A stretch of 64,000 bases of DNA from Burkholderiales bacterium (GTDB taxonomy: Bacteria; Pseudomonadota; Gammaproteobacteria; Burkholderiales; Usitatibacteraceae), in the NCBI GenBank assembly GCA_025360815.1, contig JANYBL010000057.1:141-64140 (forward strand). The letters are read 5' to 3'. This document shows positions 42,985 to 63,654 of the stretch, in pieces. The translations under genes were made by a program, and so were the position numbers. The notes under the pieces are model-generated. The model was not told where the DNA came from, did no database searches, and saw only the letters and a list, made by a program, of their open reading frames with translations. Numbering within the stretch: the first letter of the stretch is position 1; every line of letters begins with the position of its first letter.

Positions 42985-43057
42985 ACTTGTTTTCCGCCTC
43001 AGTAGTGTTGCCAAGTTTCAAATTTAATAAGCATATGTGCCGGTGTGCGCGAAAAAT

Positions 43058-44697: not shown

Positions 44698-45126
44698 GTG
44701 ATATTCCGTAAAATTAGGAGGCGGTAGCGGAAAAAATGAAGCAGAAAATAAAGCGGAAATACTGGCGCACAACGGCGAAAAAAAGCGAAATGGGCTCAAA
44801 ACAGGCAAGCAACGCCAGCTTTGGTTGACGGGACACTTTAAAGAAAACAAAAATGTTATGGTGAGATTTTAGCATTGCTGTACCAACATGGCCAATTAAC
44901 TACGATGCGATATGCGATTATTCGCCATGAACTTGACCCCGCTACTCAAAAAACTAATGATAATTTGTGTTGGCAAAGTTGCTGGCAAAGCAATGAAATG
45001 CTTCGATTTGACTTGCTGAATATCCTTTCCGCAAGCAATACTCTAATGCAGCCAAATGTTGCCCTTGTGCGATCAGGGTATTCTCTTAATTTTTAACCTG
45101 GATTTTTCCTTTTGGCAAACCCAGCT

Positions 45127-46653: not shown

Positions 46654-46796
46654 GCGTAATAAACATTAAAGGCTCTAGAATAATGCAGGCTTTATAATGT
46701 TTTTTGATGTTGCAGTACAGTTTCCCAGCCGCCGGCACACTTCTATGTTCTGAGGTCAGCACCTTCAGTCGAGCACACCCTGAAATTTTAAAAACC

Positions 46797-48365
46797 ATGA
46801 CGATGTATCTTGAGCATTTCGGCTTTACCGAAGCACCTTTCAAAATCACGCCGCACACTGAGTTTTTTTTCGCGGGGGCAAATCGTGGTGAAACCCTCGA
46901 TGCCTTAATCTACGCCATCACCAGCGGTGAAGGCATGGTTAAAGTGACTGGCGAAGTTGGTGCTGGCAAAACCATGTTGTGCCGCGTGCTGATGGAGCGG
47001 TTGCCGAAAACAGTTGAAACCATTTATCTTGCCGTGCCTTCGCTGTCGCGAGACGAGTTGCTCGCGGTTATTGCGGGCGATTTAGGTATCGACACACAGG
47101 GCGGCAACACCACCAAGCTGGTGCGAGCGTTGCAAGAACGGCTGATTGAAATTCATGCTGAAGGCAAGCAGGTCGTTGCGCTGATTGACGAGGCCCATGC
47201 CATGCCACTCGAGACGCTGGAACAAATTCGCCTGCTGTCGAATCTCGAAACTAGTCACGATAAATTGATGCAAATTGTCCTGTTTGGCCAGCCGGAGTTG
47301 GACCAGCACTTGATGCTGCCACACATGCGCCAGCTAAAGGAACGCATTACACACAGTTTTAATTTGTTGCCGCTTCCGGCGCACGACATCAAGGATTATC
47401 TGGATTTTCGGCTGCGGGCAGCAGGCTATAAGGGGGCTGATTTATTTGGCCCCGCATCGCTAGAGTTGATCGCCGACGCCTCCGAGGGCTTAACACGCCG
47501 CATAAATATTTATGCCGACAAAACCTTGCTGGCCGCCTATGCTTCCGGCACTCACACCGTTACCGAAGATCATGTCCGCGCGGCGATTAGCGATACGCAA
47601 ATTTTGCTGCCAGAAATCCCGAGCCAGAACTGGTTATTTTGGTTATCCGTCGCCACTGCTTTGCTGGTCGGGTCGGGCTTGGGATTTCTCGTGGGGCGCA
47701 TGACCACGAAGTCACCTACAGCCAGTGCAGAAATTGTGCAAAACCTTGTCTCAAAGCCGATTATTGTGGCGCCGGTACCAACGTCGGCTGCCGTGCCTAG
47801 CACTACTATCGCCTCGGCCCCAGCCCCCGGCGCTCCGCCGCCGACTCTTGCTACCTCGGCATCTGGATTAGCGCCTGCGGCAGTTAGTGAGCCCGCGACG
47901 ATGCCATCGTCCGGCGCCTCAACTGGTGCACCGACCAATGCTGCAGTCAGCAATGACTTCGCGCCCACACTGAGCAAAACGCTATCCACCGCCAGTGACG
48001 CACCAAAACGTGTAGAGGCCGTTGAAAAAGACTGGCTCCATATCCGCATGCAGGCCGATTTAAAACGATTGCGTTCTCTCAAAGCCTCGAACTACGCGAT
48101 CCAACTCATGACGGCCGATGCCCGCGAAAAATCGGCGATTGAAAATTATTTGCGGGCTTTGAGTCGGGAGCTCAACCCTGATCGCGTCATGATTTACCCG
48201 ACAGGAACCGATGAAAATCCGCGCGTTAGTGTGCTTTATGGAAGTTACACTGACCGTGCAGATGCCAACGGTGAAATTTCCAGCCTACCCACCAAACTAC
48301 AAAAATTTTCACCTTATGCACGCTCGATGCAGGTAATTCGCGACGATATTCGCCCTGGACAATAG
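46797..48365 (+). CDS. MshM/ExeA(GspA)-like AAA ATPase fused to a TM segment, a Pro/Ala/Ser-rich linker and a SPOR-like domain
   Basis: MYLEHFGFTEAPFKITP...GEGMVKVTGEVGAGKTMLCRVL is the ExeA/MshM N-terminal pattern. The TM segment is NWLFWLSVATALLVGSGLGFLVG. The C-terminus is NYAIQLMTADAREKSAIENYL...VSVLYGSYTDRADA. Confidence 0.8.
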   Translation: MTMYLEHFGFTEAPFKITPHTEFFFAGANRGETLDALIYAITSGEGMVKVTGEVGAGKTMLCRVLMERLPKTVETIYLAVPSLSRDELLAVIAGDLGIDTQGGNTTKLVRALQERLIEIHAEGKQVVALIDEAHAMPLETLEQIRLLSNLETSHDKLMQIVLFGQPELDQHLMLPHMRQLKERITHSFNLLPLPAHDIKDYLDFRLRAAGYKGADLFGPASLELIADASEGLTRRINIYADKTLLAAYASGTHTVTEDHVRAAISDTQILLPEIPSQNWLFWLSVATALLVGSGLGFLVGRMTTKSPTASAEIVQNLVSKPIIVAPVPTSAAVPSTTIASAPAPGAPPPTLATSASGLAPAAVSEPATMPSSGASTGAPTNAAVSNDFAPTLSKTLSTASDAPKRVEAVEKDWLHIRMQADLKRLRSLKASNYAIQLMTADAREKSAIENYLRALSRELNPDRVMIYPTGTDENPRVSVLYGSYTDRADANGEISSLPTKLQKFSPYARSMQVIRDDIRPGQ

Positions 48366-48904: not shown

Positions 48905-50911
48905 ATGATGCAACATCAAAAAGCGCCGAGTGTTCCATTACCAATGAAAAAATTTGGCCGCATCCTTTTCGCTTTCGGCTTGGGAGTTGCCGTCGCCCTG
49001 GCGCTTGCGAGCTGTGGTACCGCCCCAGTTGCACGTGTGGACGGGCACTTACGTAGCGATGGCGTTGACGGGATCATCGACGGTAGTGATGCTCGAAAGT
49101 CCGGTACGAGCGCGACACAACGCGCGTCGGGCAACGTACCGCAACCGGTTAGCCAAGTGCCGCTGCCGCCGCCGCCGCAGGCGCGTATCGATGAAATCCG
49201 CTATTCAGTTACGGTCAAAGATGTACCGGTGCAAGATTTGCTGTTCGCCATCAGTCGCGATACCAAAGTCAATATTGATGTTCATAATGGCATAGAAGGC
49301 CGCGTCACCTTAAACGCGATTGACCAAACACTAAAGCAGATTCTGACGCGCGTCGCCAAACAAGTGGATATGCGTTTTGAAGTCGACGGTCCGAACTTGG
49401 TGGTGATGCCCGATTCACCCTATTTGAAAATGTATAAAGTTGACTACGTCAATATGACGCGTGACTCATCCGGCTCGATCGGCATCCAAACTCAAGTGGT
49501 GGGCCCTGCTGGTGTAGGAGCAACCACAGGTGGTGGCACGCAGAACAGCACCCAATTGAAAATCGACAACTCGTCGAAAAATCGTTTTTGGGAGAGCTTG
49601 GACAAAAACATCAAAGAGCTACTACGTGAGACCGACAAGCAACTGCCAGAGGGTAGCTCTGAAACCTTTGTTCGTGATCAATCACAAGGCGCTTCACAGA
49701 CTAATCGCAGCCAAACGAATGTCCAACGCGGCACCGCGCGCAGCGGTGGCAGCAGCGCGAAAACGAATGCCCGCACTGACATCACCGGCCCTGGCCTGTC
49801 TGAGAATCAAGTCGAATCGCAGTCCAGCTCGCAAACACTCACCTTCCGCGAAGCCGCGTCGGTCATTATTAACCCCGAAACCGGAACCGTTTCGGTTCGG
49901 GCATCGGCACGTCAGCACGAAAAAATCGCCGAGTTCATTACCCAAGTTGCAGGCTCCGCCAGCCGCCAGGTGCTGATTGAAGCAACCGTGGTTGAGGTCA
50001 CGCTAAGTGATAATTACCAATCCGGAGTGGATTGGTCGGCGTTGGGTTTAAAAGGCGTGGGCTACTCTTTCACCCAAGCTTTCACCCCAACCTTGCTGTC
50101 AGATATCACCGGTGCGCCAACAACGAAGAATTTCGGTATTCAGTACAGCAATCCCAACGCGGCCGTCGGTGGTTCAATTTCAAGCAGCATTAAGTTGCTC
50201 GATTCATTTGGTACGACTAAAGTGTTGTCCAGCCCGCGTTTGACGACGCTCAACAACCAAACAGCCGTCATGAAAGTGGTTGAAAACAAGGTCTATTTCA
50301 CTGTCAAGGCCGAGGTTACTGCGGGCGCTGCAAACACCGCTGGCGTTGCCACGCCTATTATTTCCTACACATCCACACCCAATGTCGTGCCGGAAGGATT
50401 TGTAATGAACGTCACCGCGCAAATCAGCGAGGGCGACATTATTACGCTCAATGTGCGCCCCAGCATTACGCGAATTGTCAGCTATGTGAACGACCCGAAC
50501 CCCGATCTGGCGCGTGCCAACGTCATTAACAAAGTACCGCAAATTCAAACGCGCGAATTTGAAACCGTGCTGCGCGTGCCAAGCGGTCAGACCGCCGTAC
50601 TGGGTGGGTTGATGCAGGATAGTTTTGAAGGTCGACGCGATGGTCTGCCGGTCGTTTCACGCTGGAAAATATTTGGCGATGCCGTTAGCTATCGTAACGA
50701 TACGGGCCGAAAAACAGAGCTGGTCGTTTTCCTGCGTCCGCTGGTGATCAAAGATGCGAGCGTGGAGACCGATTTTTCGGAATATCGTCGATTGTTGCCA
50801 GACAAAAAATTCTTTAAGGAGGCGGAGCCCACGTTTCCCGTACTCTATCCGCCTACCGATACGCGCATCACGCCGGATGGCACAACATCACCAGTGAGGC
50901 CGACACCGTGA
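48905..50911 (+). CDS. Secretin (MshL/GspD/PilQ superfamily), probable lipoprotein
   Basis: The lipobox is LALASCG. The C-terminal secretin domain has VLIEATVVEV, TKVLSSPRLTTLNNQTAVMKV and VLGGLMQD...DGLPV...ELVVFLRP. Possible starts are ATG 48905 or 48944. The track start at 48563 is an extension. Confidence 0.85.
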   Translation: MMQHQKAPSVPLPMKKFGRILFAFGLGVAVALALASCGTAPVARVDGHLRSDGVDGIIDGSDARKSGTSATQRASGNVPQPVSQVPLPPPPQARIDEIRYSVTVKDVPVQDLLFAISRDTKVNIDVHNGIEGRVTLNAIDQTLKQILTRVAKQVDMRFEVDGPNLVVMPDSPYLKMYKVDYVNMTRDSSGSIGIQTQVVGPAGVGATTGGGTQNSTQLKIDNSSKNRFWESLDKNIKELLRETDKQLPEGSSETFVRDQSQGASQTNRSQTNVQRGTARSGGSSAKTNARTDITGPGLSENQVESQSSSQTLTFREAASVIINPETGTVSVRASARQHEKIAEFITQVAGSASRQVLIEATVVEVTLSDNYQSGVDWSALGLKGVGYSFTQAFTPTLLSDITGAPTTKNFGIQYSNPNAAVGGSISSSIKLLDSFGTTKVLSSPRLTTLNNQTAVMKVVENKVYFTVKAEVTAGAANTAGVATPIISYTSTPNVVPEGFVMNVTAQISEGDIITLNVRPSITRIVSYVNDPNPDLARANVINKVPQIQTREFETVLRVPSGQTAVLGGLMQDSFEGRRDGLPVVSRWKIFGDAVSYRNDTGRKTELVVFLRPLVIKDASVETDFSEYRRLLPDKKFFKEAEPTFPVLYPPTDTRITPDGTTSPVRPTP

Positions 50912-52569
50912 GCCTGCTGTTGGATGCCTTAAAGCGCGCTGAAGATGCTAAACGGTTAAAAAGAAGCGAAGCTTTAAATGGTGATTTGCTCGGCCACGAC
51001 GAGCCATCGGACACGGCGCTAACCTTGGATAACGCAGATCAATTGGCCGTTACGGTCCTTTCGTTAGAGGAGATGCATGCAGAAACAAAGTTGCCAACGA
51101 CATCGTCCGAATCAATTGCAGGAATATTTACGGAGACCTCGGCCAAAACAACATTGATTGATCCGACTGGGGCTGCGAGGTCTTTTTCGCTTGTCGATGA
51201 TGTAGTGCCACCGGCTCTCGTTGCAGCTCCCTCCCCCACGGCAACATCAACCGCAAGCCGCGCTGGGCGTGTCGACAAACCCTCGGCGCTATTGCGAGCG
51301 ACCGGAGCAACTAGCGCCGTCTCAAACCGCACCGCCAATAGCGCGCCCGCCGATTGGAGTGAAAGTGATATTGCCGACATTGCCAAAATCGAAGCCGAGC
51401 AACAGGCCAAACAAAGCGCACAACAACGGGATCAGCGTGACGCTGCGAAAAATATCTTCGCCGCAAAAAAAAATGTTCAGTCGGCGAGCGCTACTGCTTC
51501 CAAAACAAAGTGGCTTTTGCCGCTCATCGCCTTATTGGTTGTTGGAATTGGCGGGGGGGCATGGTATGTCTGGAACGAAGTAAACAAAGTATCGCAACCA
51601 TCTTGGCAGCAGACTGCGTCATCGCGGGCAGCATTGCCACAGCCATCGCTATCCAAAGTGCAGCCGAGCGGGGCAACTTTAACGCCGAGTGTCGCTACCG
51701 CTGTTGTTGCCTCGACGACCGCGCCGGCAACTACAGCGGCCACCGGGATCACCAGCCCAGCAGAACCGGCATCAGTTGACGCAGCTTTACCACCTTTGTT
51801 GCCGCCGCCAGCCAAAGAGATGCCGTTGCCCAAATTGGTGTCCGCGCCTACCGTTAAAAAATTATTTGAGGGTGAATCCCTTACCGAACGTGAGTTGCTC
51901 GCCAAGCGGCTGCAAGCATCGAGCGGCGCCAAGTCGGCCATTGAGGCGCCGGTGAGCTTGAAGCTTTCACAAACCATCGATGTGCCCAAGGTGAACCCGA
52001 CATTGCTCGCTGCTTACGCCGCGTTAAGCAAAGGCGATTATGCCGAAGCGAAGAAACGTTATGGCGACGTTGTCAGAACAGAGCCTTACAGCTTGGACGC
52101 GCAGTTGGGATTGGCAACAGCGGCGGCGCGAACAGGCGACAACGCAACGGCGGCAAAATTCTATCGACAAGCGCTTGCGCTTGACCCACGCAATGGCACT
52201 GCACTGTCCGGACTTATCGCCGTTAGCGGCGAAGTGCCCTCCGATACGCTTGAAACTGAGCTCAAAACATGGGTAGTGAAAAACCCGAATTCTGCGCCGC
52301 TTCAATTTTCCCTTGGCAATTTATACGCGGGCCAACGGCGCTGGACGGAGGCACAACAAGCTTATTTTGATGCGTATCGAATCGATTCAGTAAATGCCGA
52401 TTATTTATATAATTTAGCGGTCAGTTTGGATCAGCTTAATCAGTTCAAGTTGGCGCTCGATTATTATCAAAAAGCGTTGGCTCAACTCGGCCGCAGCGGA
52501 GGGCAATTTGATCGCGCATCGGTGGTTCGCCGGGTTGGCGAACTCAAAGCCAATCCCAAAGCGAACTAA
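50908..52569 (+). CDS. Bitopic TPR-repeat protein (MshN-like) with a GspB-like N-terminal motif
   Basis: The GTG start overlaps the secretin stop (GTGA). The N-terminus is MSLLLDALKRAEDAKR and the TM segment is WLLPLIALLVVGIGGGAWYVW. TPR repeats occupy the last ~200 aa. Confidence 0.7.
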   Translation: MSLLLDALKRAEDAKRLKRSEALNGDLLGHDEPSDTALTLDNADQLAVTVLSLEEMHAETKLPTTSSESIAGIFTETSAKTTLIDPTGAARSFSLVDDVVPPALVAAPSPTATSTASRAGRVDKPSALLRATGATSAVSNRTANSAPADWSESDIADIAKIEAEQQAKQSAQQRDQRDAAKNIFAAKKNVQSASATASKTKWLLPLIALLVVGIGGGAWYVWNEVNKVSQPSWQQTASSRAALPQPSLSKVQPSGATLTPSVATAVVASTTAPATTAATGITSPAEPASVDAALPPLLPPPAKEMPLPKLVSAPTVKKLFEGESLTERELLAKRLQASSGAKSAIEAPVSLKLSQTIDVPKVNPTLLAAYAALSKGDYAEAKKRYGDVVRTEPYSLDAQLGLATAAARTGDNATAAKFYRQALALDPRNGTALSGLIAVSGEVPSDTLETELKTWVVKNPNSAPLQFSLGNLYAGQRRWTEAQQAYFDAYRIDSVNADYLYNLAVSLDQLNQFKLALDYYQKALAQLGRSGGQFDRASVVRRVGELKANPKAN

Positions 52570-52705: not shown

Positions 52706-54421
52706 ATGGATCAAATGAATTCACCGATTTCTCAGCTTCCGCTTGGGCAAAACCTGCTTGCCAAAGGAATTGTTTCGCAGGATCAGCTGAACATTGCGCT
52801 GACTGAACAGCGGAAGCTAAAAACACCACTGGGTAAAATTTTGGTGCAGTTGGGCTTCGCGACCGAAGCGACGATCCGCGACACGTTGTCTGAAAGCTTG
52901 GGCCAGGTTGCAATTGATTTATCGAACACCATTATCGACCACGCCGCGCTGGCGCTGGTTCCCAAAGATATTGCCCGGCGCTATCAAGTGCTGCCAGTGG
53001 ATTATGACCGCCAAAATCGCAAGCTGTTGCTCGCGGTAGCTGATCCCTCCAACGTAGTGGCGCTTGATCAAATTCGCGCCCTGATTAAAGACGATGTTCG
53101 TATCGAACAAGTGCTCGCGCGCGAATCGGACATCTCAATCGGGATCGAGCAGCACTACGGCTTTGAATTGTCGATCGACGGCATCTTGAACGAGATTGAA
53201 ACAGGTGAAATCGACTATCAATCGATCACGACCGACTTCGAGGAATACAGCCAGCCGGTGGTGCGACTCGTGGATGCCTTACTTAACGACGCCGTAAAGC
53301 GGAACGCTTCAGACATTCACTTTGAGCCGGAGCAAGGTTTTTTGCGGATCCGCTATCGAATCGACGGTGTGCTGCGCCAGATTCGCTCGCTTCATAAGAA
53401 TTATTGGAGCGCGATGGTGGTCCGCTTGAAGGTTATTAGCGGGATGAATATTGCTGAATCCCGTGCGCCGCAGGACGGCCGGATATCGCTATCACTTTCC
53501 GGTCGCGCGATTGATTTTCGCGTTTCCGCCCAGCCGACTACGCACGGCGAAAATATCGTATTGCGTATCCTAGACCGGCAAAAAGGGATTGTGCCGCTCG
53601 ATGATCTGAGCTTGCAGGAAAACGAGTTAAAGACGCTGCGCCTGATGATGGCACGTCCCGAAGGCATCATTTTGGTGACCGGGCCAACCGGGTCCGGCAA
53701 AACCACAACACTCTATTCAATTTTGAATCACATCAATACCGAAGGTGTGAACATCATGACGCTGGAAGATCCGGTCGAATATCCGATGTCTATGATTCGG
53801 CAGACTTCGGTCAATGAATCAGCAAAACTTGATTTCGCCTCTGGGATTCGGTCGATGATGCGACAAGATCCGGACGTGATTTTGGTTGGCGAGATTCGCG
53901 ATAAAGACACCGCTGAGATGGCGTTTCGCGCGGCGATGACGGGGCATCAGGTGTTTTCCACATTGCATACCAACTCGGCTATTGGTGCGATCTCACGACT
54001 ACAAGATTTGGGCGTGCTACCCGATATCATGGCAGGCAATATTATTGGCGTGGTGGCGCAGCGACTGGTGCGCAGGCTTTGCACGCATTGCAAGGAAGCC
54101 TACCGGCCCACCGATGAAATGACGCGGAAAATTTTAGGCGTCGGCCCAACATGGAATGGAGAAATTTTCCGTGCAGACGGGTGCGAACAATGCGACAACA
54201 CTGGCTATCGCGGTCGCATGGCGATTATGGAATTGTTTAAAATGGATCAGGACATGGATGAGCTGATTGCACGGCGTGCAACGGGGCGTGAGATTCGCGA
54301 GGCGGCGCGTAAAACAGGCTATCGCACCTTAGCCGAAGACGCGACGGCGCGGGTTCTGGCCGGCCAGACTGACATTAACGAAATTTCACGGACCGTCGAT
54401 TTGACCGACCGCGTTACCTGA
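52706..54421 (+). CDS. GspE/PilB-family secretion ATPase with an MshEN-type N-terminal domain (MshE-like)
   Basis: Walker A is GPTGSGKTTT. Asp-box, Walker B and His-box regions are present. The tetracysteine motif is CTHC...CEQC. The N-terminus carries two xLGxxLLxxG(I/F)xxxxxL repeats. Confidence 0.9.
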   Translation: MDQMNSPISQLPLGQNLLAKGIVSQDQLNIALTEQRKLKTPLGKILVQLGFATEATIRDTLSESLGQVAIDLSNTIIDHAALALVPKDIARRYQVLPVDYDRQNRKLLLAVADPSNVVALDQIRALIKDDVRIEQVLARESDISIGIEQHYGFELSIDGILNEIETGEIDYQSITTDFEEYSQPVVRLVDALLNDAVKRNASDIHFEPEQGFLRIRYRIDGVLRQIRSLHKNYWSAMVVRLKVISGMNIAESRAPQDGRISLSLSGRAIDFRVSAQPTTHGENIVLRILDRQKGIVPLDDLSLQENELKTLRLMMARPEGIILVTGPTGSGKTTTLYSILNHINTEGVNIMTLEDPVEYPMSMIRQTSVNESAKLDFASGIRSMMRQDPDVILVGEIRDKDTAEMAFRAAMTGHQVFSTLHTNSAIGAISRLQDLGVLPDIMAGNIIGVVAQRLVRRLCTHCKEAYRPTDEMTRKILGVGPTWNGEIFRADGCEQCDNTGYRGRMAIMELFKMDQDMDELIARRATGREIREAARKTGYRTLAEDATARVLAGQTDINEISRTVDLTDRVT

Positions 54422-54537: not shown

Positions 54538-55740
54538 ATGGCTTCATTTGCATATCGCGCGATTGACCAAGAAGGAATGATGCAGCGTGGCAATGTTGAC
54601 GCCATGAATGCGGTCGACCTCGAATTGCGCCTGAGGCGACTCGGATTGGAGCTGATTACTTTTGAGTCGATCAACAAATCGAGCATGCTCAGGGCTAAAC
54701 GCATTAGTCGCAAAGAGCTAGTGACGTTTTGTTTTCACTTGGATCAATTGATGCGGGCCGGTGTGTCAATTATCGATGCCCTGACCGATCTGCGCGATTC
54801 AGCTGAAAACCCTGCCTTTCGTCAGATTGTCGGTAGTCTGTTGGAAGATATTGAAGGCGGTTTAACCCTTTCCAGCGCGATGAATAACCACCCCAGCGCG
54901 TTCGATCGCGTGTTTGTGGCGCTGATTAGTACCGGCGAGCAAACAGGTCAGCTACCTGAGGTCCTAACCAAACTCACCGAAAACCTAAAATGGCAGGACG
55001 AGCTTTCGGCACAAGTAACCAAAGCGATGACGTATCCACTTTTCGCAGGTACCGTCATTATCGGTGTGGTATTTGCGCTGATGATTTTTTTAGTGCCGCA
55101 GCTTGCCATCACCATGAAGGCCCTCACGCCCAATCCGCCGCCACAAACGATGGCGTTGATTGCAGTATCAGCTTGGATGAAAAACTATTGGTATCTCGTG
55201 ATCGGCGTGCCGATTATAAGCGGGGTCACGCTTTTTATCCTTGCCAAAACCAATGAAGAGGTGCGCTACCGGATTGATGCGCTGATGTTGAAGTTGCCGA
55301 TTGTAGGACCATTGACCACCAAAATTATTTTGGCACGATTCTCGACCTATTTTGCCCTGATGTACCAGTCGGGCATCGGCGTGTTGGACTGTATTCGCAT
55401 TTCGGAAAAAATTGTTGGCAACCGCGTAATTGAGGCTGGACTTCAGCGGGTTGGTCGCGAGATCAATGATGGCACCGGTATCACGCAAGCTTTTCAGAAC
55501 GTGCGGATGTTCCCGCCCTTGGTGATACGGATGTTGAAAGTGGGCGAATCGTCGGGCGGACTTGATACCGCGCTGCTCAATGTAAGCTATTTCTATAATC
55601 GCGATGTCAAAGAAATGATGGGCAGATTACAGGAAATGATCCAGCCTATACTCACCGTCGTGCTAGGCGGTATTCTGATCCTGATCTTAGTTACCGTGTT
55701 CTCACCGATGTACGACGTGATTTCTAAGGTGAAAACATGA
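54538..55740 (+). CDS. GspF/PilC-family inner-membrane platform protein (MshG-like)
   Basis: 400 aa with two T2SSF-like repeats (FCFHLDQLMRAGVSIIDAL; FSTYFALMYQSGIGVLDCI) and three TM segments. Confidence 0.9.
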   Translation: MASFAYRAIDQEGMMQRGNVDAMNAVDLELRLRRLGLELITFESINKSSMLRAKRISRKELVTFCFHLDQLMRAGVSIIDALTDLRDSAENPAFRQIVGSLLEDIEGGLTLSSAMNNHPSAFDRVFVALISTGEQTGQLPEVLTKLTENLKWQDELSAQVTKAMTYPLFAGTVIIGVVFALMIFLVPQLAITMKALTPNPPPQTMALIAVSAWMKNYWYLVIGVPIISGVTLFILAKTNEEVRYRIDALMLKLPIVGPLTTKIILARFSTYFALMYQSGIGVLDCIRISEKIVGNRVIEAGLQRVGREINDGTGITQAFQNVRMFPPLVIRMLKVGESSGGLDTALLNVSYFYNRDVKEMMGRLQEMIQPILTVVLGGILILILVTVFSPMYDVISKVKT

Positions 55741-55837: not shown

Positions 55838-57505
55838 ATGAAACACTTTCTTTACCTCACTAACGACAAGCTCATCACGCTCATCTGGAAATCGGGGCGA
55901 ATGGTTAGCCGTGATGTATTTCAAGTTGGCGAGGCCAATTCGAAGCAGTTCCGCGATTATTTGCTCAAGCATCGCGAGGTGCCGACGTATTTAGTAGCCG
56001 ATTTAATCGAGGAAGATTTTCGACTAGACACCATGCCACATTTACGCGGTGGCGATGCCGACACCGTGCTCAGCCGAAAACTGGGGCAGCTCTACCGCGC
56101 AACCACCTTTAGCCACGCCATCGTACAGGATCGTGAACCGGAAGGCCGTCGCGACGATAAGGTTCTGTATCACGCGATTACCAACCCCGATCTGCTTACG
56201 CCTTGGTTGGCTGCGCTGGAAACCAGCGAGGTACCTGTGGCGGGCGTCTATTCATCGCCGGTTTTGTCAGTTCATTTGCTCAACCAATTGGATACGATTC
56301 CCAATCATGCATTGGTGGTTACCATCGTGCCCGATTTTGGTCTTCGACAAACCTATTTCCAGAATAAGCTGATCAAATTTAGCCGTTTAACGCAGATTAT
56401 TTTTGATGAAGGCCGCTCGGTCGGTAGTTTGATCGCCGCTGAAATTAGCCGCACTTGGCAATATTTGGATAGCCTGCGTTATTTTAGCAATGGCGAAGCG
56501 CTAGAGGTATGCGTCTTGGTGCATGAGCGTGATCGTCCGACGATTGCCGAGGCGTTTCGCAGCTTTCCGTTGCTCAAATGCCGCTTCCTCGATATCACTG
56601 AGATCGCCAACAAAATCAAACTAAAGCAGGTCCCCACTACCTCGCACGCCGAAGAAGTGCTCGCCCACCTGTACGCCCAAAATCGGCTTGAAAATCATTT
56701 TGCTCAGCCCGACACCACTCGTTTTGCGGTCTTCCGCAACGCGCGTATTGCGCTTTATGCCGTTACCGCGAGTGCCCTTGCGGCAGGATCGGGTGCGGCT
56801 GGATTCAATCTATATCAAGCATCACAAATTTCGAAAGAAATTGACCGCCGCGATACCACTACCCTCGGCCTTCAAAGCGAATATCAAGCCATTTCTAATT
56901 CCCTCCGTGAATTGAAATTAGCATCGGGCACGGTGCGGGATTCCAGCATATTCTTTAACAGCCAAATCCGCCCGCAACCGGCCGCCCCAGGTGACTATTT
57001 GCGCGAACTAAGCAAGGCGATCGTTGACGCGCCCAAAGTGCGGCTTCTCCAAGTGGTCTGGGCGGTCGGCAATGACGCCAATGCCACTCCATTTTTTACA
57101 CCGATGCCAACCCCGCCGATATTGGATGTGATTTCAGAAACCAAAGCCGATACAAGTTCGCCTTCGGCAGTAGCAGCGATTCTAGGCTCCAGCGCCGGCG
57201 GCATCGCCGCAACCCAAGCCGCGGTGAGCGACCTCAACCCAGCAATGCCAGGTAATAAATTTCACATTGGCGTCATTGAGTTTGCGATGATCTCGTTTGA
57301 CGGCGATTTCCGCAAGCTGCTGTCTGAAATTGAAGTATTCAAAAATCGGTTTAATGAAATCCCCAACATTAAAGCGACCATCGTTACCTTGCCGCTTAAC
57401 TTGGACACCACCGCGACGCTAAAGTCCGGTGCTAAAAAGGACACTGTTGACGCCCGTGAAGCGCGGTTTGTGATTAAGGTTGTCAGTACGGTGGTTGGCA
57501 CATGA
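55838..57505 (+). CDS. Hypothetical assembly protein: cytoplasmic PilM/GspL-like domain + TM + PilN-like periplasmic domain (MshI-like architecture)
   Basis: 555 aa with a single TM segment (ALYAVTASALAAGSGAAGFNLY) near residue 310. A coiled segment and a periplasmic domain follow. The call rests on position after the platform gene and on architecture, not on recognised sequence motifs. Confidence 0.45.
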   Translation: MKHFLYLTNDKLITLIWKSGRMVSRDVFQVGEANSKQFRDYLLKHREVPTYLVADLIEEDFRLDTMPHLRGGDADTVLSRKLGQLYRATTFSHAIVQDREPEGRRDDKVLYHAITNPDLLTPWLAALETSEVPVAGVYSSPVLSVHLLNQLDTIPNHALVVTIVPDFGLRQTYFQNKLIKFSRLTQIIFDEGRSVGSLIAAEISRTWQYLDSLRYFSNGEALEVCVLVHERDRPTIAEAFRSFPLLKCRFLDITEIANKIKLKQVPTTSHAEEVLAHLYAQNRLENHFAQPDTTRFAVFRNARIALYAVTASALAAGSGAAGFNLYQASQISKEIDRRDTTTLGLQSEYQAISNSLRELKLASGTVRDSSIFFNSQIRPQPAAPGDYLRELSKAIVDAPKVRLLQVVWAVGNDANATPFFTPMPTPPILDVISETKADTSSPSAVAAILGSSAGGIAATQAAVSDLNPAMPGNKFHIGVIEFAMISFDGDFRKLLSEIEVFKNRFNEIPNIKATIVTLPLNLDTTATLKSGAKKDTVDAREARFVIKVVSTVVGT

Positions 57506-58311
57506 GTGTGATTTTTTCAAAAAAAGGTTTCCGCGCAATGCGCTTGTCGGTCTTGGTTACGCTATCGGGGGTGGCGGTAGCAACTTTTTTGGCAGGCACT
57601 AGCTATTGGTATTGGCAGTCCGAAAAAAACGGCAACCAGACTTCTTCGGCGCGACAGCAGGATACCCGTACCCGTCTTGAAACGGCCCGCCGTGAACGGG
57701 ATGATCTTCGTGATTCAGAGCAAACCTACAAAGTGTTGACCACTCGAGGCGTGTTTCAGCCCGAACAGCGGCTGGAGTTGGTAGAAGCGTTCGCAGCGCT
57801 TAAAACTCGTCATCAACTTGTTGCATTTGAATATGAAGTTCAGCCGCAACGGCCACTTAAGCTAAGCGCCAGCGTGAGTCTGCCAGCGGTAGATGTATTC
57901 GGAAGCCGGATCAAATTTAAAGCCCGTGCCAACCATGACGGAGACCTTGTGGCATTTTTAGATGAATTCCCGCGAATGCAGCGCGGATTTTTCCCGCTGG
58001 ATCGTTGTGTTATCAAACGAACCAGCGAATCGGAATCCGCCAAAAATATTGCGTCCGTAACCAAGGCGACTGGCCTACAAGCCGCAGTGACAGCGATGGC
58101 ATCTTCAACGGGACTCAACACACCGCAATCCAGTGTTGATGCGGATGAGACCAGCTTGGAATCCATTCTCAAGCCACGTGCGCCGCAGGTCAGCAAAACG
58201 GATTCTGCAGCGCTTGAAGCCGATTGCTCGCTGGAATGGATAACGATGGTCGATAAACAGAAAATCGCTGAATTGCCCAAGCAAAGCAGCGGCGCAACGC
58301 GTTCTCAATAG
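57502..58311 (+). CDS. Hypothetical bitopic protein, PilO/GspM/MshJ-like architecture
   Basis: The ATGA overlaps the upstream stop. An N-terminal TM segment (LSVLVTLSGVAVATFLAGTSYWYW) is followed by a charged coiled segment (RTRLETARRERDDLRD) and a ~110-aa domain. Confidence 0.4.
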   Translation: MSVIFSKKGFRAMRLSVLVTLSGVAVATFLAGTSYWYWQSEKNGNQTSSARQQDTRTRLETARRERDDLRDSEQTYKVLTTRGVFQPEQRLELVEAFAALKTRHQLVAFEYEVQPQRPLKLSASVSLPAVDVFGSRIKFKARANHDGDLVAFLDEFPRMQRGFFPLDRCVIKRTSESESAKNIASVTKATGLQAAVTAMASSTGLNTPQSSVDADETSLESILKPRAPQVSKTDSAALEADCSLEWITMVDKQKIAELPKQSSGATRSQ

Positions 58312-58324
58312 CGAATTACTAACC

Positions 58325-58897
58325 ATGCTGCGATTAACTCTCCCCACTCTTCACGTTTGCGCGCTGGCTCTTGCAGCCGCGAGCGTAGGCGGGGTCTTTC
58401 AAACTAGCGCTATCGCTGCGCCTATTGCGCTTAACCCGCCCGCTACGGTCAGTATGGTTAGTGACGCAGCGTCCAGCAACAGTGTCGCCGTTCCGCCACC
58501 GCCTAAAAATATAAGGAACACAGCCGAGCCAATATCAGGAACCCTATTTTTTACCCGAGAACAACGCGAACGAATTGACCGTGCTCGCAAGCAAGGCGAT
58601 TTCGTTGAAGTCGAAGAGGCGGTTGTGGCGGAGAAGCCGCCCCGCCCGGTGATTAACGGGTTTGTTAAGCGAAGTGATGGCGCCGACGCGGTTTGGATCA
58701 ATGGCCAGCGCATGAACCTTGCAGCGGACGCGGCGGACTCTATTAGCGCCACTGATGTTGGCAGCAGTGCCGCCGCGCAGCGCGTGCAGTTCGTCAGCTC
58801 TTCGGCGAAATTGATGACCCAAACGTATTCATCAGCAAACCGCAAAGCAGTAAAAAAAATGAAGCGGTCGCCCATAAAAAAAGCAAAAAGAAAATGA
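58325..58897 (+). CDS. Hypothetical secreted/periplasmic protein (possibly MshK/PilP-like)
   Basis: The signal peptide is MLRLTLPTLHVCALALAAASVGG...AIAAP. The motif INGFVKRSDGADAVWINGQ lies in the middle and the tail is Lys-rich. Confidence 0.35.
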   Translation: MLRLTLPTLHVCALALAAASVGGVFQTSAIAAPIALNPPATVSMVSDAASSNSVAVPPPPKNIRNTAEPISGTLFFTREQRERIDRARKQGDFVEVEEAVVAEKPPRPVINGFVKRSDGADAVWINGQRMNLAADAADSISATDVGSSAAAQRVQFVSSSAKLMTQTYSSANRKAVKKMKRSPIKKAKRK

Positions 58898-60945
58898 CTA
58901 AGTTGGTGCGCGGCAAGGGTCAAAACCCGCCTGCGCGGGGCTTTGTGTTTCTGCTGATCATGCTGACGATTTTGGCAATTGCAGGCATTGTTTTTTTGAA
59001 TAGCACTGCACAAAATGCCCTGTCGACACAAAACCAATTGAGGCGCGATCAGCTTTCAACCGGCGTGCTCATAGCGGCTAAGAATGCGCTTCTTGGGCGA
59101 TTAATGAGCCCGGCCAACAATACACTTAGACCGGGCATTCTGCCTGCACCGGATTCTCTTGCCAACGGAACTTACGACGGCAAATCCGATACGCAATGCT
59201 TAGGCAATTCTTTAAACGGGCTTCCCGGTGTGGGCGCCAACTCACTCGTCAAGCGCTGTATTGGAAAAGTCCCGTGGTTAACGTTAAGCCTCGACTTGGC
59301 AAACCCGGCAGTAGAAGATCCGCTTGGTCAGGTGCCGTGGATGGCAATATCAGCAAATTTAGCGCCTGATGAAGTTACTTGCCTGCCCGTCTTCAACTCT
59401 GACGTGGCGAATCTAACTTCGCCGGTAACGCCGTCTTGTGCAGGCGTTCCGGGGGTGCAACCGACTGCACTTCCGCATCCATGGCTAAAGGTCTTTGACG
59501 AAGCCGGCAATTTACTTTCAGACAAGGTCGCTATTGTCTTAATTTTGCCGGGCGCACCAATTCAAACAGAAACAAGAAGTCAAAATAGAACCCCTTCTAG
59601 TCCAGGCAATCCATCGGATTATCTGGATTCGATTAACCTTCCGTTGGGTTGTTTGGTGGGGTGTACGCTTTTTGATAATGCAAATTTGACGAATCAATTT
59701 GTCATGATTAAGCCTGGCACTCGCTATCCGTCTGACGCGCCGAACGTCGCCAAACGAGGGGCGGCTGTTCCCTTTAATGACACGCTCATCTACCTCACAA
59801 TTGACGAGGTTATGCCTTATGCAGAGCGGAGAGTTGTAGGACAAATGGCATTAGCGCTTCGTGACTTGAAAGCCAATAGTTCGTTCAGCGCACATCCTTA
59901 TCCTTGGCTAGCTTCTACAAACACATTGCCCACTGCAACAACCAGCCTAGTTCCGCAAGCAGGAATCTATTACGGCCATTTTCCATTTATGACGGACTCG
60001 GCTGCCGGCGCGAATTCCGATTATGCGACTGATTTCGATTGGTCAATCACAGGGCTCATCGATGGCACACTACCAACTTGTGTCAGAATTAATTCTGCGC
60101 CAAATGTCTATATAAAGCCAACACTGCTCAATTCGCTTACGCCCCCTCTCGCGACACCCAATTTGGCAAATGGCGCGGCCACGTCAAATGTTGGGCAATG
60201 TAGGTGGAAAGGGATAGGAAATGTTTCATGTGCACTACAAGCTGGAAAAAATATTACGACCAATTTTCCGGTAACGATGACCACCTATTCAAACAATACA
60301 TGCACCACGGCAACTGGCGCCACTACTTTGTCAATTGCGCGTGCGATAACAGCGCTTCAAATTGACGCAACATGCAGGACTGCGCCGCCGGTTGCACCTG
60401 TAATTAGCTATGTTTCTGCTAGTGCTTCTGATGTGCATCGTTGGAAATGGGCCTGTGGCATCGTTGCCAATACTTCGGCAGCCTCCATTGATGTTTCGGA
60501 TACGATCAGTAATATCGCGACATCATGGAATAGATTGCCTCTCTCAACATCCACTTCATCATTAGGAACGCCTACACAGATTACGGTTGACCGAATGATG
60601 TATCACCCCATCATGCCGGCATGGTTCCATGAAAATTTATGGTATCAAACAGCATTTGCCGCCGTTGCCCCGTCTGCCGCCGCAGCCAATACCTCCCCGT
60701 GTGGTAGCGGAATTAATTTTCTAACGACTGGCGGTGTTACCAAAGTTGAAGCCATCACTGCTGTAGCAGGAAAAAATCTAACCACCAACATACGACCTTC
60801 TTCGTTGATCACCGACTATTTTGAAGGCAATAATGCGCTTGGCAAAGGCGGCGTGATGCCAGGCATTTCTAACTGCGCTTTTGATACGGCGACTTCTCTG
60901 TCAACTGTTACGGCAAACGACCAGTTACAAGTGGTGTCACCTTGA
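58894..60945 (+). CDS. Large Cys-rich pseudopilin-like protein (non-canonical class III signal, no Glu5)
   Basis: The ATGA overlaps the upstream stop. The N-terminus is MTKLVRGKGQNPPARG/FVFLLIMLTILAIAGIVFL. The rest is 683 aa, Thr/Ser/Ala/Asn-rich, with 14 cysteines by my count. I recognise no family. Confidence 0.45.
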   Translation: MTKLVRGKGQNPPARGFVFLLIMLTILAIAGIVFLNSTAQNALSTQNQLRRDQLSTGVLIAAKNALLGRLMSPANNTLRPGILPAPDSLANGTYDGKSDTQCLGNSLNGLPGVGANSLVKRCIGKVPWLTLSLDLANPAVEDPLGQVPWMAISANLAPDEVTCLPVFNSDVANLTSPVTPSCAGVPGVQPTALPHPWLKVFDEAGNLLSDKVAIVLILPGAPIQTETRSQNRTPSSPGNPSDYLDSINLPLGCLVGCTLFDNANLTNQFVMIKPGTRYPSDAPNVAKRGAAVPFNDTLIYLTIDEVMPYAERRVVGQMALALRDLKANSSFSAHPYPWLASTNTLPTATTSLVPQAGIYYGHFPFMTDSAAGANSDYATDFDWSITGLIDGTLPTCVRINSAPNVYIKPTLLNSLTPPLATPNLANGAATSNVGQCRWKGIGNVSCALQAGKNITTNFPVTMTTYSNNTCTTATGATTLSIARAITALQIDATCRTAPPVAPVISYVSASASDVHRWKWACGIVANTSAASIDVSDTISNIATSWNRLPLSTSTSSLGTPTQITVDRMMYHPIMPAWFHENLWYQTAFAAVAPSAAAANTSPCGSGINFLTTGGVTKVEAITAVAGKNLTTNIRPSSLITDYFEGNNALGKGGVMPGISNCAFDTATSLSTVTANDQLQVVSP

Positions 60946-60959
60946 ACGAGGCCAGCAGC

Positions 60960-61823
60960 ATGAAAACCAGAGCCGCTGGATTTACCTTGATCGAAATTGC
61001 CATCGTATTGGTAATAATTTCTGTGCTGGTCACTATTGTCGCTGTTCCGCTTTCCACGCAACTTGAGCAAAAGCGGTTCGATGAAACGCAAAAGCAGTTA
61101 GAGGTTGTAAAAGACGCTTTGGTAGGTTTTGCTATTTCGAATGGTCGTCTGCCTTGTCCTGCCAGCGCGACCAGTTCGGCACGCGAGAGTTTTTGCTCAA
61201 ATGCCACTGGTGGCTGTGGCGCGGAAGTCTTGAGTTATGCCGCAGCGCCGCACGGTCGCTGCTTCGCGTCGAACGGGTTCATTCCTGCAAACACATTAGC
61301 TCTATCCCCCGTTGATGCACAAGGTTACATGGTGGATGCTTTTCTGAAAGCAGATAACATTAATCGCATACGTTACGCCGTGCCAGCCGTCACCGTTTCA
61401 ATCGTAAACGTGGGGTACACGGCAGCGCCTGCTAAGGATTATCAGGTATTCACTTCTACTGATGGTATGCGCAACACCACGATGGATAAAATAACTGCTT
61501 ATGCAGCGGGGCTGCTATTTATATGTCAAGAATCGCAAGCTGTGACAACCGTGTCGATCACTGGCTGCGGTGCAAGGACAGAATTGACGCGAGCGAGCCC
61601 AGCTGTCGTATTTTCGGTCGGTTCGAATGCAGAGGTGGCACTTGGCAATTTGAGCTCTGGCGGCGAAGCGAGCAATCAAACCCCAAATTCAGTCGCATTT
61701 TTCCAAGGGTCAAGGGTGGATAAACGCGGTGCAGCAACGCCCTATTATTTTGATGATCTTGTGACTTGGATTTCGCCCAACACACTTTTTCTAAGAATGG
61801 GGCAAGCGGGCAAATTACCCTAG
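60960..61823 (+). CDS. Prepilin-type N-terminal cleavage/methylation domain protein (large pilin or pseudopilin, ~287 aa)
   Basis: MKTRAAG/FTLIEIAIVLVIISVLVTIVAV is a canonical class III signal with Phe+1 and Glu+5. I count six cysteines. Confidence 0.85.
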   Translation: MKTRAAGFTLIEIAIVLVIISVLVTIVAVPLSTQLEQKRFDETQKQLEVVKDALVGFAISNGRLPCPASATSSARESFCSNATGGCGAEVLSYAAAPHGRCFASNGFIPANTLALSPVDAQGYMVDAFLKADNINRIRYAVPAVTVSIVNVGYTAAPAKDYQVFTSTDGMRNTTMDKITAYAAGLLFICQESQAVTTVSITGCGARTELTRASPAVVFSVGSNAEVALGNLSSGGEASNQTPNSVAFFQGSRVDKRGAATPYYFDDLVTWISPNTLFLRMGQAGKLP

Positions 61824-61832: not shown

Positions 61833-63554
61833 TTACTTGTTTGAAACCTCAAACCGAACTTGGCCGATCTCATTCGTCGCCAGCGTCAATAAATACCCCT
61901 GCTGCTCAGCCAGTCGCCGCGCCTGATACAGCCCTATCCCTAGCCCGCCTTGACGTGAATTGGCGATGGGGGCAACGAATAGCATTTCCAATTTCGCGCT
62001 TGGAATTGGGCTGCCGTCGTCTATGATGGCGAGCGAGGGCGCAGGTTCAGTGGAGAGTTCAATTCTAATGACCATATTGGGTTCGCGTTCTTTTTTCTTG
62101 CGAGCGTTTTCAAGGCAATTCTCCAGCACGGTGTCGAAGAGCGCAGTTGGAACGGTAACGTTCAAGTCTCCCCGTACCAGGAATGTCGCGCCACTTCCGG
62201 CATGCCGGGTGGTAACGTCGGCCCACCAGTCTTGTGCAGTCATGGCGACCCCGGTTCGGCCAATGTCGGGGTTCTGTAGCTTGTCGAGCGTGGTTTGCAG
62301 CCGCTTGCTGAGTTGCGGGAGTTGCCTGACCAGCATCGCCTCATAGCGGGAGGACTCACGGCGTTCCGGCAAATGTTGGCTCGCGTCTTGATGCGCAATG
62401 CCAGCGGATGTCAGCGCGTAAAGCGATTGCAGCAGGTTTTTAATATCGTGGGTCAGACGCGCACCAGTTTCGTGGACAGCTTGCATATAGGCGTTTTGTT
62501 TGAGCACTTGCTCGCGCCGCTTGCCTTCATAAAACTCGCCAATCACTTGCGCCAGCAGCCGAGCATGGAGAAACAGCGCAGGTGACAGCGGCATGGCAGT
62601 AAAAAAAGTGACGTCAAGCTGATGATAGCGAAAGCTCGCCGCATGCGCGGTCTTGATGCCAAAGGTGCCGGCTTTTTCGCCCCCCGAATTTCCTTCTTTT
62701 CCGCCGGTAGATCTCCATTCTCCGCCCATAATCCACGGGGTGAGCGCGACTTCCTGCATTGCATGCGCCAAAAATTGTGCCGAGCTACTCTCGCCCTCCG
62801 ACAATGCAGCAACACGCCGCATCCATAATTCAAACGGCATCCCTACCGACATTAAGTATCGCGAAAAATACGTTCGCAAACCTCCAAATCCCGCGCGCGG
62901 CCCCCACATAATCGACAGCACAAACAATGCGCCCGCAAACGACAGCACTGTCAACAACACCGCCTGAAAATATTGATTCTCCGTTACGCGCATGGCAGCG
63001 ATACTTCCCAGTACCAGCACTACCACCAGCTGAAATACAAAAAGGCTATAAAAAAAATCAAACACTTGGTTAGTCGCTTCGTCTTCGCCACGAAACGGCA
63101 GCACTAACATTGGGGACAACGTCAGTGGCAACAACATAAACGCGACACCGTAGATCCCCGCTGGCAAATTGCTGATTTTTAAAAGTGAAACCGGCACAGT
63201 CCACATCAATAGCACCGCAAATAAATAGAAGACCGCCACTAAATAAAACAGCCCGCGCCGCCCGGGCTGCAAAGTGAACACCTTACCGCCCATAATGCCG
63301 ATCAAAATCGCGATCCATGTCACTAGCATCCAGCCGGCGAGCGAGTACAGAACGACGGTGGTAATACCCATCAGCAATCCGACCGCGATGACGTTTAGCT
63401 CACGCTCCGCGCTAATGAATGGCTGCCATATCAAAAAAAGCCCGAAATGAATGAGCAGCCAGATGCGTTCAAAATCGCTTTCCGCCGGCGCCATCAGTGC
63501 GGCGTGCAGCGACAGCAACATGGCCAAGATCACCCACCGGCGCATCCTTAGCAT
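61833..63554 (-). CDS. Multi-TM sensor histidine kinase (PrsK-like architecture)
   Basis: The N-terminal ~260 aa hold about 8 hydrophobic segments. The H-box is THDIKNLLQSL and the ATP-binding motifs are DDGSPIP...GGLGIGLY. The start is either ATG 63554 (MLRMRRW) or TTG 63611. Confidence 0.8.
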   Translation of the reverse strand: MLRMRRWVILAMLLSLHAALMAPAESDFERIWLLIHFGLFLIWQPFISAERELNVIAVGLLMGITTVVLYSLAGWMLVTWIAILIGIMGGKVFTLQPGRRGLFYLVAVFYLFAVLLMWTVPVSLLKISNLPAGIYGVAFMLLPLTLSPMLVLPFRGEDEATNQVFDFFYSLFVFQLVVVLVLGSIAAMRVTENQYFQAVLLTVLSFAGALFVLSIMWGPRAGFGGLRTYFSRYLMSVGMPFELWMRRVAALSEGESSSAQFLAHAMQEVALTPWIMGGEWRSTGGKEGNSGGEKAGTFGIKTAHAASFRYHQLDVTFFTAMPLSPALFLHARLLAQVIGEFYEGKRREQVLKQNAYMQAVHETGARLTHDIKNLLQSLYALTSAGIAHQDASQHLPERRESSRYEAMLVRQLPQLSKRLQTTLDKLQNPDIGRTGVAMTAQDWWADVTTRHAGSGATFLVRGDLNVTVPTALFDTVLENCLENARKKKEREPNMVIRIELSTEPAPSLAIIDDGSPIPSAKLEMLFVAPIANSRQGGLGIGLYQARRLAEQQGYLLTLATNEIGQVRFEVSNK

Positions 63555-63612
63555 GTTGGCGGGCAAAGTTTGCAGAATTTTATGATCGATTGAATTCAAC
63601 GCGGTGCCCAAA

Positions 63613-63654
63613 TAAACGAAAACGAGTAAACGAAAACGAGTAAACGAAAATGAC
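63613..63654. repeat. 14-bp tandem repeat TAAACGAAAACGAG (two perfect units plus one partial) upstream of the kinase gene
   Basis: taaacgaaaacgag occurs at 63613-63626 and 63627-63640. taaacgaaaatgac follows at 63641-63654. Confidence 0.8.

Follow-up and report, generated by a model that had tools for sequence, protein, structure and literature searches.

What do five closely packed genes encode when four of their products match no Pfam or NCBIfam family and the fifth is a type IV prepilin? We addressed this question for a block on contig JANYBL010000057.1 of a Burkholderiales bacterium (Usitatibacteraceae; assembly GCA_025360815.1), using positions 141 to 64,140 of that contig, a stretch of 64,000 nucleotides (nt) that we call the window and whose own numbering is used throughout. 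The block consists of five open reading frames (ORFs), here X1 to X5, at positions 55838-61823 on the + strand. An initial annotation, made from the sequence without database searches, had described it as a coupled unit of unrecognisable proteins ending in the only canonical prepilin, and had suggested that these were either highly divergent alignment-complex proteins or something new. Our preferred reading, to which we assign a probability of roughly 70%, is that these genes supply a type IV filament machine of uncultured Betaproteobacteria, encoded in a single locus, with its inner-membrane alignment sub-complex and its filament-tip parts, the machine being similar to both the mannose-sensitive haemagglutinin (MSHA) pilus and type II secretion systems (T2SS).

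A tightly packed and conserved gene block

Direct reading of the junctions bore out the overlaps and short gaps given in the initial annotation. The start of X2 overlaps the stop of X1 in an ATGA at 57502-57505, the start of X4 overlaps the stop of X3 in a second ATGA at 58894-58897, and the two remaining junctions are gaps of 13 nt (X2 stop at 58311 to X3 start at 58325) and 14 nt (X4 stop at 60945 to the X5 ATG at 60960). The ATGA overlaps fit a stoichiometric co-production of interacting partners. Upstream, only 97 nt separate X1 from the gene for a platform protein, which indicates that the block belongs to a longer same-strand gene array. Scans for sigma-70 promoters and terminators across the locus stayed at chance level, and a sigma-54 promoter pattern was found 48 times in the window against 49.7 occurrences expected by chance. 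Since no promoter or terminator signal in the window exceeded chance, we claim no internal promoter or terminator and infer the operon structure from spacing only.

Orthologues of all five genes, in the same order, were found in nine independent loci, with X1 ranging from 90% down to 39% identity to the window protein; the ORFs are thus kept in relatives, whose failure to conserve them had been named as a result that would speak against the block. The closest relatives are metagenome-assembled genomes (MAGs) labelled Burkholderiales, Betaproteobacteria, Usitatibacter or Usitatibacteraceae. Beyond these loci, the X1 family comprised 617 matches at E ≤ 1e-3 (the best 120 of the 617 near full length), the X2 family 208 matches and the X4 family 533 representatives of 50%-identity clusters. 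In searches of Pfam and NCBIfam that listed matches up to E = 1, nothing came near a curated cut-off for any of X1 to X4. At this profile level the four proteins are as unrecognisable as first described; the description does not hold for X4, which profile-profile alignment with hhalign revealed to be a paralogue of the pilin encoded after it.

X1 and X2 resemble the GspL-GspM pair

X1 (55838-57505, + strand; 555 amino acids, aa) was classed from its fold match and family alignment as a GspL/MshI-type bitopic assembly-platform protein. Its predicted layout comprises a PilM-like actin-fold cytoplasmic domain (residues ~1-290), a weakly hydrophobic putative transmembrane (TM) helix (~303-325) and, after a coiled coil, a periplasmic domain of alpha-beta type (~384-551). 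The family alignment shows very high conservation over the first ~290 residues, followed by an uncharged Ala/Gly-rich helix and a less conserved C-terminal half, and the motifs DLIEEDFRLDT, EGRRDD, PDFGLRQTYF and RTWQYLDSLR are invariant. Because the first 21 residues (MKHFLYLTND..) are also invariant across the family, we take 55838 as the real start. The gene callers used for public contigs place the start at Met22, giving a protein of 534 aa.

We built an AlphaFold2 model of X1 from 24 sequences (mean predicted local distance difference test score, pLDDT, 70) and compared it with the Protein Data Bank (PDB) using Foldseek, which returned 50 matches at E ≤ 1e-3, all of them actin-fold proteins with those of type IV pili on top. 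The leading matches were PilM of Myxococcus xanthus (3jc8_Ma, 1.2e-7) and of Pseudomonas aeruginosa (5eoy and 5eou, 2.6e-7 and 4.1e-7), with FtsA, the cytoplasmic domain of the GspL protein PulL (5tkw, 1.1e-5) and a long tail of actin-fold kinases further down. The PilM and PulL matches had a probability of 1.00 and target-normalised TM-scores of 0.43-0.48 and 0.46, respectively. After a helix at 295-374, the model continues with alpha-beta-beta and beta-alpha-beta-beta elements, broken by a disordered insert, that look like a PilN/GspL-type periplasmic domain. The modelled X1 is thus built like GspL, MshI or a fusion of PilM with PilN, and the earlier suggestion of a divergent alignment-complex protein is upheld for X1 by its PilM/GspL-type actin-fold domain. 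Sequence comparison gave no comparable signal: PDB sequence and profile searches found nothing significant, the window protein matched none of the T2SSL, GspL_C, PilM_2, PilN and TIGR01709 models, one of 18 family members matched GspL_C below threshold (0.015), and hhalign probabilities were 1.3% for Escherichia coli GspL and 0.2% for HofM, neither of them significant.

X2 (57502-58311, + strand; 269 aa) is predicted to begin with a TM helix at residues 15-33, to continue as a long coiled coil to ~81 and to end in an alpha-beta-beta repeat domain. Its AlphaFold2 model (mean pLDDT 71) consists of the TM helix, a helix of ~75 residues and a domain of two alpha-beta-beta units. A Cys169/Cys242 pair is invariant in the family alignment, which fits a periplasmic location. 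The best Foldseek matches were all PilO-type, led by M. xanthus PilO (3jc8_Oa; E 0.019, probability 0.96) and P. aeruginosa PilO (2rjz; E 0.087, probability 0.90) and followed by the PilO core 5uvr and the PilO-like protein Amuc_1100. Profile hints recurred in the X2 family below threshold, with five of 25 members matching Pfam T2SSM (best 4.9e-4) and four of 25 matching NCBIfam GspM_XpsM (best 0.0037). The window protein itself matched none of the PilO, T2SSM, T2SSM_b and GspM models, and hhalign found no significant relationship of X2 to E. coli GspM or HofO, nor one of the PilN/PilO type between X1 and X2. The alignments of X1 with GspL and of X2 with GspM are topologically sensible, but being non-significant they prove nothing. 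Given the fold and profile hints and the overlap of the gene with that of the GspL-type X1 before it, X2 is most likely the GspM/PilO partner of X1; the pieces of evidence, each weak, are consistent with one another, and the initial suggestion is sustained for X2 as well.

Such a combination of shared fold and lost sequence similarity has a precedent, in that PilM plus PilN correspond to GspL, and PilO to GspM, with a common fold and no sequence similarity (Berry and Pelicic, PMC4471445). As in GspL-GspM or PilM-PilN/PilO, the genes for X1 and X2 are adjacent and overlapping, their products share topology and order with that pair, and their fold matches are to PilM and PulL and to PilO. Unlike GspL, which has ~390-400 aa, X1 has 555 aa, a long disordered periplasmic insert and invariant motifs of its own, with no significant sequence similarity; unlike GspM or PilO, X2 contains a long insert of low complexity and a disulfide pair that is conserved.

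X4 is a pilin paralogue without Glu5

X4 (58894-60945, + strand; 683 aa), left without a description in the initial annotation, is a pilin-like protein that lacks Glu5 and is paralogous to the pilin encoded next. When nine pilin orthologues were aligned with 36 diverse X4 members using hhalign, the two families matched with a probability of 97.7% (E 1.7e-12) over 225 columns, covering the whole pilin. Within the alignment lie the helix at the N-terminus, two motifs (AKxALxGxA and G.LPxP) and, close to the C-terminus of the pilin, the FDDxVxW / FNDxLxY region. The N-terminus of X4 reads ..ARG followed by FVFLLIML.., and position +5 is therefore Leu and not Glu; the family consensus here is QRGxALLL.

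Overall, X4 is built from a pilin-paralogous module (residues ~14-310), a variable middle and a conserved C-terminal module ending in NDQLQVVSP. Among the 533 representatives the N-terminal ~350 aa are conserved and total lengths range from 350 to 1115 aa; the core belongs to no Pfam family, although DUF7305, CBM_5_12 and the ice-binding-like adhesive domain pAdhesive_15 each occur in single members. The last ~45 residues (window 60800-60945; ..YLEgxN...C.F....NDQlxVVSP) are kept in the orthologues of loci L001-L009, which are 381-683 aa long, and are reminiscent of the strand given in cis by GspK and CpaL. In published systems, Glu5 is invariably missing from PilK/GspK homologues, CpaL is a tip protein that resembles a pilin and has an adhesin domain, and both GspK and CpaL supply a C-terminal strand in cis (PMC13533445). 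Because the loss of Glu5, the variable middle and the conserved C-terminus match this pattern, X4 is probably a GspK/CpaL-class initiation subunit with a built-in adhesin, and would be located at the filament tip.

The likeness to GspK, PilX (PilK) and CpaL extends to a pilin-like N-terminus with Glu5 replaced and a QRG-type motif before it, a large size with an extra domain, a conserved extreme C-terminus and a gene next to that of another pilin. Unlike GspK or PilX, X4 matched no GspK or PilX_N model, nor any other entry of Pfam, NCBIfam or the PDB profiles, and its pilin module is a paralogue of the 287-aa pilin of its own locus. Alignment with E. coli GspK by hhalign was confined to the 16-residue N-terminal QRG motif (probability 11%), and no GspI- or GspJ-type partners were recognisable in the window.

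The filament proteins form a hypervariable cassette

In a comparison with the closest relative, locus L001, identity was 100% for the assembly ATPase, 98% for the platform protein, 93% for the secretin, 90% for X1, 89% for the flanking histidine kinase and 87% for X2, and then 68% for X3, 42% for X5 and 40% for X4. X4 and X5 are thus a replaceable cassette (window 58894-61823, corresponding to L001:13116-16023) between conserved genes, with X2 and X3 on one side and the kinase gene on the other. Hypervariability is the signature expected of surface-exposed parts under selection, which argues for a pilus over a periplasmic pseudopilus.

The second member of the cassette, X5 (60960-61823, + strand; 287 aa), is a canonical type IV prepilin that passes the cut-offs of Pfam N_methyl (PF07963, 26.2 bits vs 21.2) and TIGR02532 (23.5 vs 16.3), with an N-terminus that matches GspG best. 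Its seven-residue leader, MKTRAAG, is followed by FTLIEIAIVLVIISVLV, which begins FTLIE and so has Glu5 present. We rejected the TTG at 60942 that a mechanical ORF list gives as the start, as the ATG at 60960 yields this canonical leader. X5 also carries a GRLPCPA motif and the conserved C-terminus ..FDDxVxWxSLNTLFxRMxQAGKLP, and its PDB profile matches cover pilin N-termini only.

Relatives carry a second prepilin

A six-frame regular-expression scan of the 64 kb found the prepilin motif G-[F..]-[TSA]-L-I-E in X5 alone, in agreement with the initial annotation of an only canonical prepilin inside the window; relatives, however, carry another just past the point where the window ends. In L002, L005/L006, L007 and L009, a sigma-54 promoter with the consensus TGGCAC-N5-TTGC, an ORF of 30-40 codons and a second prepilin lie 270-400 nt past the kinase gene (L002:17640-18235, L005:17560-18634, L006:18726-19388, L007:16810-17963 and L009:17495-18570). 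This prepilin has 217-232 aa and the N-terminus ..QQSG followed by FTLVEIAIVLVIIGLLLGG.., is duplicated in L006, and, at ~55% identity between those loci, varies less than X5 does. Not all relatives share this arrangement, since no second prepilin was found next to the kinase in L008 or in the available stretch of L004.

The window extends no more than 389 nt beyond the start of the kinase, so that the position of a second prepilin is not visible in it, and the uniqueness of X5 may be an artefact of the window end. We therefore rejected as unsafe the equation of the only canonical prepilin with the major pilin, given the second, sigma-54-driven prepilin of relatives. At roughly even odds, X5 may be the fibre subunit or, instead, a minor pilin linking X4 to a major pilin whose expression is separate.

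Immediately upstream of the kinase start, positions 63613-63650 hold a perfect tandem repeat with a unit of 14 nt (TAAACGAAAACGAG, 2.7 copies). An identical pilin occurs on 17 public contigs, and the four shown all end near this repeat, which suggests an assembly break there or at a repeat further on. A search of JGI metagenomes for exact matches to the final 36 nt of the window found none.

X3 is a small exported protein

X3 (58325-58897, + strand; 190 aa) has orthologues in all nine loci. An alignment of 16 orthologues shows a shared signal peptide, the motifs GTLFF(S/T)REQRERxDRAR and INGFVKRSDGxxxVW(V/I)DG and a Lys/Arg-rich C-terminal tail; the signal peptide has no consistent lipobox. 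Members of the family matched nothing in Pfam, NCBIfam or a PDB profile search, a word-indexed homologue search returned 11 proteins, none of them annotated, and hhalign probabilities for E. coli GspB, GspC and HofP were below 1%. In one of these alignments the INGFVKRSDG hairpin fell on the start of the GspC HR region with a probability of only 0.1%, which is a lead and not evidence.

From its position, size and export signal only, we tentatively suggest that X3 is a periplasmic connector analogous to PilP, the HR domain of GspC or MshK, an assignment that we hold at somewhat less than even chances. The earlier proposal of divergent alignment-complex proteins thus stands for X1 and X2 and is not supported for the third protein, as no test tied X3 to PilP, GspC, GspB or MshK. 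Four of the five genes can be explained without the alternative of something new, and X3 is the sole part that may still hide it.

The block is the distal part of a type IV filament locus

The five genes close the same-strand series of a conserved 12-gene type IV filament locus. Its first gene (45112-46653, +) encodes a sigma-54-dependent response regulator of the PrsR/NtrC type (TIGR02915, 336.6 bits vs a cut-off of 502.6) and holds the same position in the loci of relatives. It is followed by an AAA ATPase that resembles ExeA/GspA/MshM (46704-48365, +; TIGR03015, 218 bits vs a cut-off of 324.5) and has a TM segment as well as a C-terminal tail of SPOR/DamX-like character; DamX matches this C-terminus weakly, and the ATPase of relatives carries AAA_22. 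The secretin gene (48905-50911, +; Pfam Secretin 3.1e-29) matches MshL best, at 228 bits for TIGR02519 (cut-off 250.2) compared with 132 bits for GspD and 93 for PilQ. Homologues of 631-670 aa indicate that an ORF call from 48563 is ~115-127 codons too long, and we rejected that start for 48905 or 48944, which gives the lipobox LASC; by this reading of the sequence the protein is a probable liposecretin.

The start of the next gene overlaps the secretin stop and encodes a tetratricopeptide repeat (TPR) protein with one TM segment in an MshN/TadD-like position (50908-52569, +; TPR families). The assembly ATPase (52706-54421, +) is of the GspE/PilB/MshE class (T2SSE 5.9e-131) and has an N-terminal MshEN domain (1.9e-17), a cyclic di-GMP (c-di-GMP)-binding domain that passes both cut-offs (PF05157, 63.5 vs 23.1 bits; NF053729, 58.2 vs 38) and shows both copies of the RLGxxLLxxG-type motif. 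The platform protein (54538-55740, +) is of the GspF/PilC/MshG type (T2SSF 4.1e-50; TIGR02120, 285 bits). Beyond the block, a histidine kinase gene (61833-63611, - strand) is convergent with it and adjoins the pilin in relatives too; the product has ~8-9 N-terminal TM helices and a PrsK-like catalytic part (HATPase_c; TIGR02916 2.5e-12, 46 bits). No prepilin peptidase was found among the 12 locus genes or among ten further window ORFs scanned, which are housekeeping genes.

The flanking two-component pair (45112-46653 and 61833-63611) resembles PrsR/PrsK of XrtA/PEP-CTERM systems below cut-offs, and the best model for the ExeA-like ATPase is that of a PEP-CTERM-associated ATPase; among the ORFs examined, neither exosortase nor PEP-CTERM genes were found. 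Further upstream, positions 37803-44850 hold murA, a BolA-family-sized ORF, an ABC-2 transporter pair and Mla-like genes (an MlaF-type ABC ATPase, a permease, MCE/MlaD, an MlaC-like protein and STAS). In relatives the MlaF-type gene is conserved as the gene to the left of the pilus locus.

Which machine does the locus encode?

We propose that X1 would work like GspL, MshI or a PilM-PilN fusion, with its actin-fold cytoplasmic domain as the docking site for the GspF-type platform and the c-di-GMP-responsive ATPase, and with its periplasmic domain and TM helix paired with X2. X2 itself would be GspM/PilO-like, and X3 would connect the X1-X2 pair with the MshL-like liposecretin in the manner of PilP, the HR domain of GspC or MshK. 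X4, with its swappable middle domain and conserved C-terminal strand, would prime assembly and end up at the filament tip as an adhesin, with X5 polymerising beneath it. Translational coupling would hold the partners in stoichiometry, and the PrsK/PrsR-like pair together with sigma-54 probably controls filament production. The machine would be activated by c-di-GMP and serve adhesion rather than secretion.

Several observations weigh against this proposal. X1, X2 and X3 have no significant profile match to PilM, PilN, PilO, PilP, GspL, GspM, GspC or GspB. The fold matches of X2 are weak (E 0.02-0.09, none at E ≤ 1e-3), the AlphaFold2 models of X1 and X2 are moderate (pLDDT 70-71, predicted TM-score 0.42-0.49), and the uncharged stretch taken as the TM helix of X1 (303-325) falls under the usual hydropathy threshold. 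The role of X3 follows from position and architecture, and a pilus is here preferred to a pseudopilus on sequence evidence. Known machines use three or four minor pilins, and here only X4 and X5 are visible.

The locus could represent a distinct, as yet unnamed subclass of type IV filaments, widespread in uncultured Betaproteobacteria, in which X4, as a single Glu5-less pilin-adhesin fusion, would replace the usual four-protein priming complex, X3 would be a new periplasmic component with no relation to PilP, GspC or MshK, and a PrsK/PrsR-like sigma-54 circuit would control the fibre; we regard this as doubtful, at perhaps one chance in a few. Control of this kind is familiar from Pseudomonas type IVa pili, where PilS-PilR and sigma-54 act on the major pilin gene. 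The present locus is similar in having a multi-TM histidine kinase and a sigma-54 activator, with a consensus sigma-54 promoter before the kinase-adjacent prepilin of relatives. It differs in that its kinase and regulator are closer to PrsK/PrsR of PEP-CTERM systems, the sigma-54-driven pilin falls outside the window and the sigma-54 sites inside it are at chance.

A type II secretion system that exports folded proteins, with X1 as GspL, X2 as GspM, X4 as a GspK-like cap, X5 as a pseudopilin and the ExeA-like ATPase as GspA, would account for the GspE and GspF models being the top or near-top NCBIfam matches of the ATPase and the platform protein. It would equally account for the direction of the sub-threshold matches of the X1 and X2 families (GspL_C, T2SSM and GspM_XpsM), for GspG as the best match of the X5 N-terminus, for the GspK-type QRG..ALL signature of X4 and for a locus with no retraction ATPase. 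We nevertheless consider it unlikely, because X4 and X5 are hypervariable between near-identical machines and X4 members carry adhesin-like or carbohydrate-binding C-terminal domains, both of which point to exposed surfaces under selection, not expected of a pseudopilus in the periplasm. Moreover, the secretin fits MshL far better than GspD (228 vs 132 bits), neither a GspC with a PDZ domain nor a GspH/I/J set is present, and X5, at 287 aa, is roughly double GspG in length. The c-di-GMP domain MshEN is a typical feature of MSHA-type pili with an adhesive function, which likewise counts against secretion.

An ordinary MSHA locus, in which X1 to X3 would be MshI, MshJ and MshK moved downstream of mshG, is improbable to much the same extent, in spite of extensive likeness to the MSHA loci of Vibrio and Shewanella. 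MshI is a fused PilM/PilN-type protein, and here too such a protein, as modelled, is followed by a probable PilO-type protein. The core is also MSH-like: the best match of the secretin is MshL (228 bits), the assembly ATPase is of the MshE type with MshEN, the platform is of the MshG/GspF type, a second ATPase resembles MshM/ExeA, and a TPR protein stands where MshN would. The MSH type has been defined by a single locus with no peptidase, the E, G, L and M components and a TPR protein (Denise et al. 2019, TXSScan/MacSyFinder, PMC6668835), and the present locus is likewise single, with no prepilin peptidase among the ORFs scanned. The differences begin with gene order, as the accessory genes stand after the platform gene here and before the secretin gene in MSHA. 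No profile recognises X1 to X3, and for their family members no match to PilM_2, PilN, PilO or T2SSM_b was listed at any E-value. In Pfam, MshI and MshJ fall under these families, and the confident full-length matches to MshI, MshJ or MshK that the initial annotation had named as the mark of an ordinary MSHA block did not appear in Pfam and NCBIfam scans of the X1-X3 families. The MshL, GspE and GspF models all score under their curated cut-offs for the locus proteins. A motif scan of the window and hhalign revealed neither the minor pilins MshB, MshC, MshD, MshO and MshP nor MshQ, in place of which there are one Glu5-less pilin-adhesin fusion and one large prepilin, and PrsK/PrsR-like regulators flank the locus. 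With a core under cut-offs, accessory proteins that fail sequence models and minor pilins and MshQ missing, we do not file the locus as ordinary MSHA.

That X3, or possibly all of X1 to X3, is a new type of component unrelated to PilMNOP or GspCLM, with a fold likeness that is convergent or a model artefact, is very improbable: X3 matches nothing, the fold matches of X2 are marginal and both models are of moderate confidence, but the match of X1 to PilM, FtsA and PulL is strong and specific, X2 has PilO of two species and Amuc_1100 as its top matches with independent profile hints to GspM, and gene order and topology match GspL-GspM.

Implications for filament machines of uncultured Betaproteobacteria

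The locus is a lineage-specific variant of a known machine and not a new kind of system. It introduces no new principle, because type IV filaments are known for accessory proteins that diverge past sequence recognition and yet retain their folds (PMC4471445). What it adds are four conserved families with no Pfam or NCBIfam assignment, namely X1 (at least 617 members), X2 (208), X4 (533 representatives) and the small X3 family; members of the X1 and X2 families, where they are named at all in their sources, are called "hypothetical protein". Assigning roles to X1, X2 and X4 lets such loci be annotated as pilus machines in many MAGs of soil and freshwater Betaproteobacteria. The cassette of X4 and X5 may represent a compact, natural case of a pilin-adhesin fusion doing the work of a priming complex of several proteins, and it is relevant to the rule of C-terminal strand addition that was recently proposed for the initiation of filaments.

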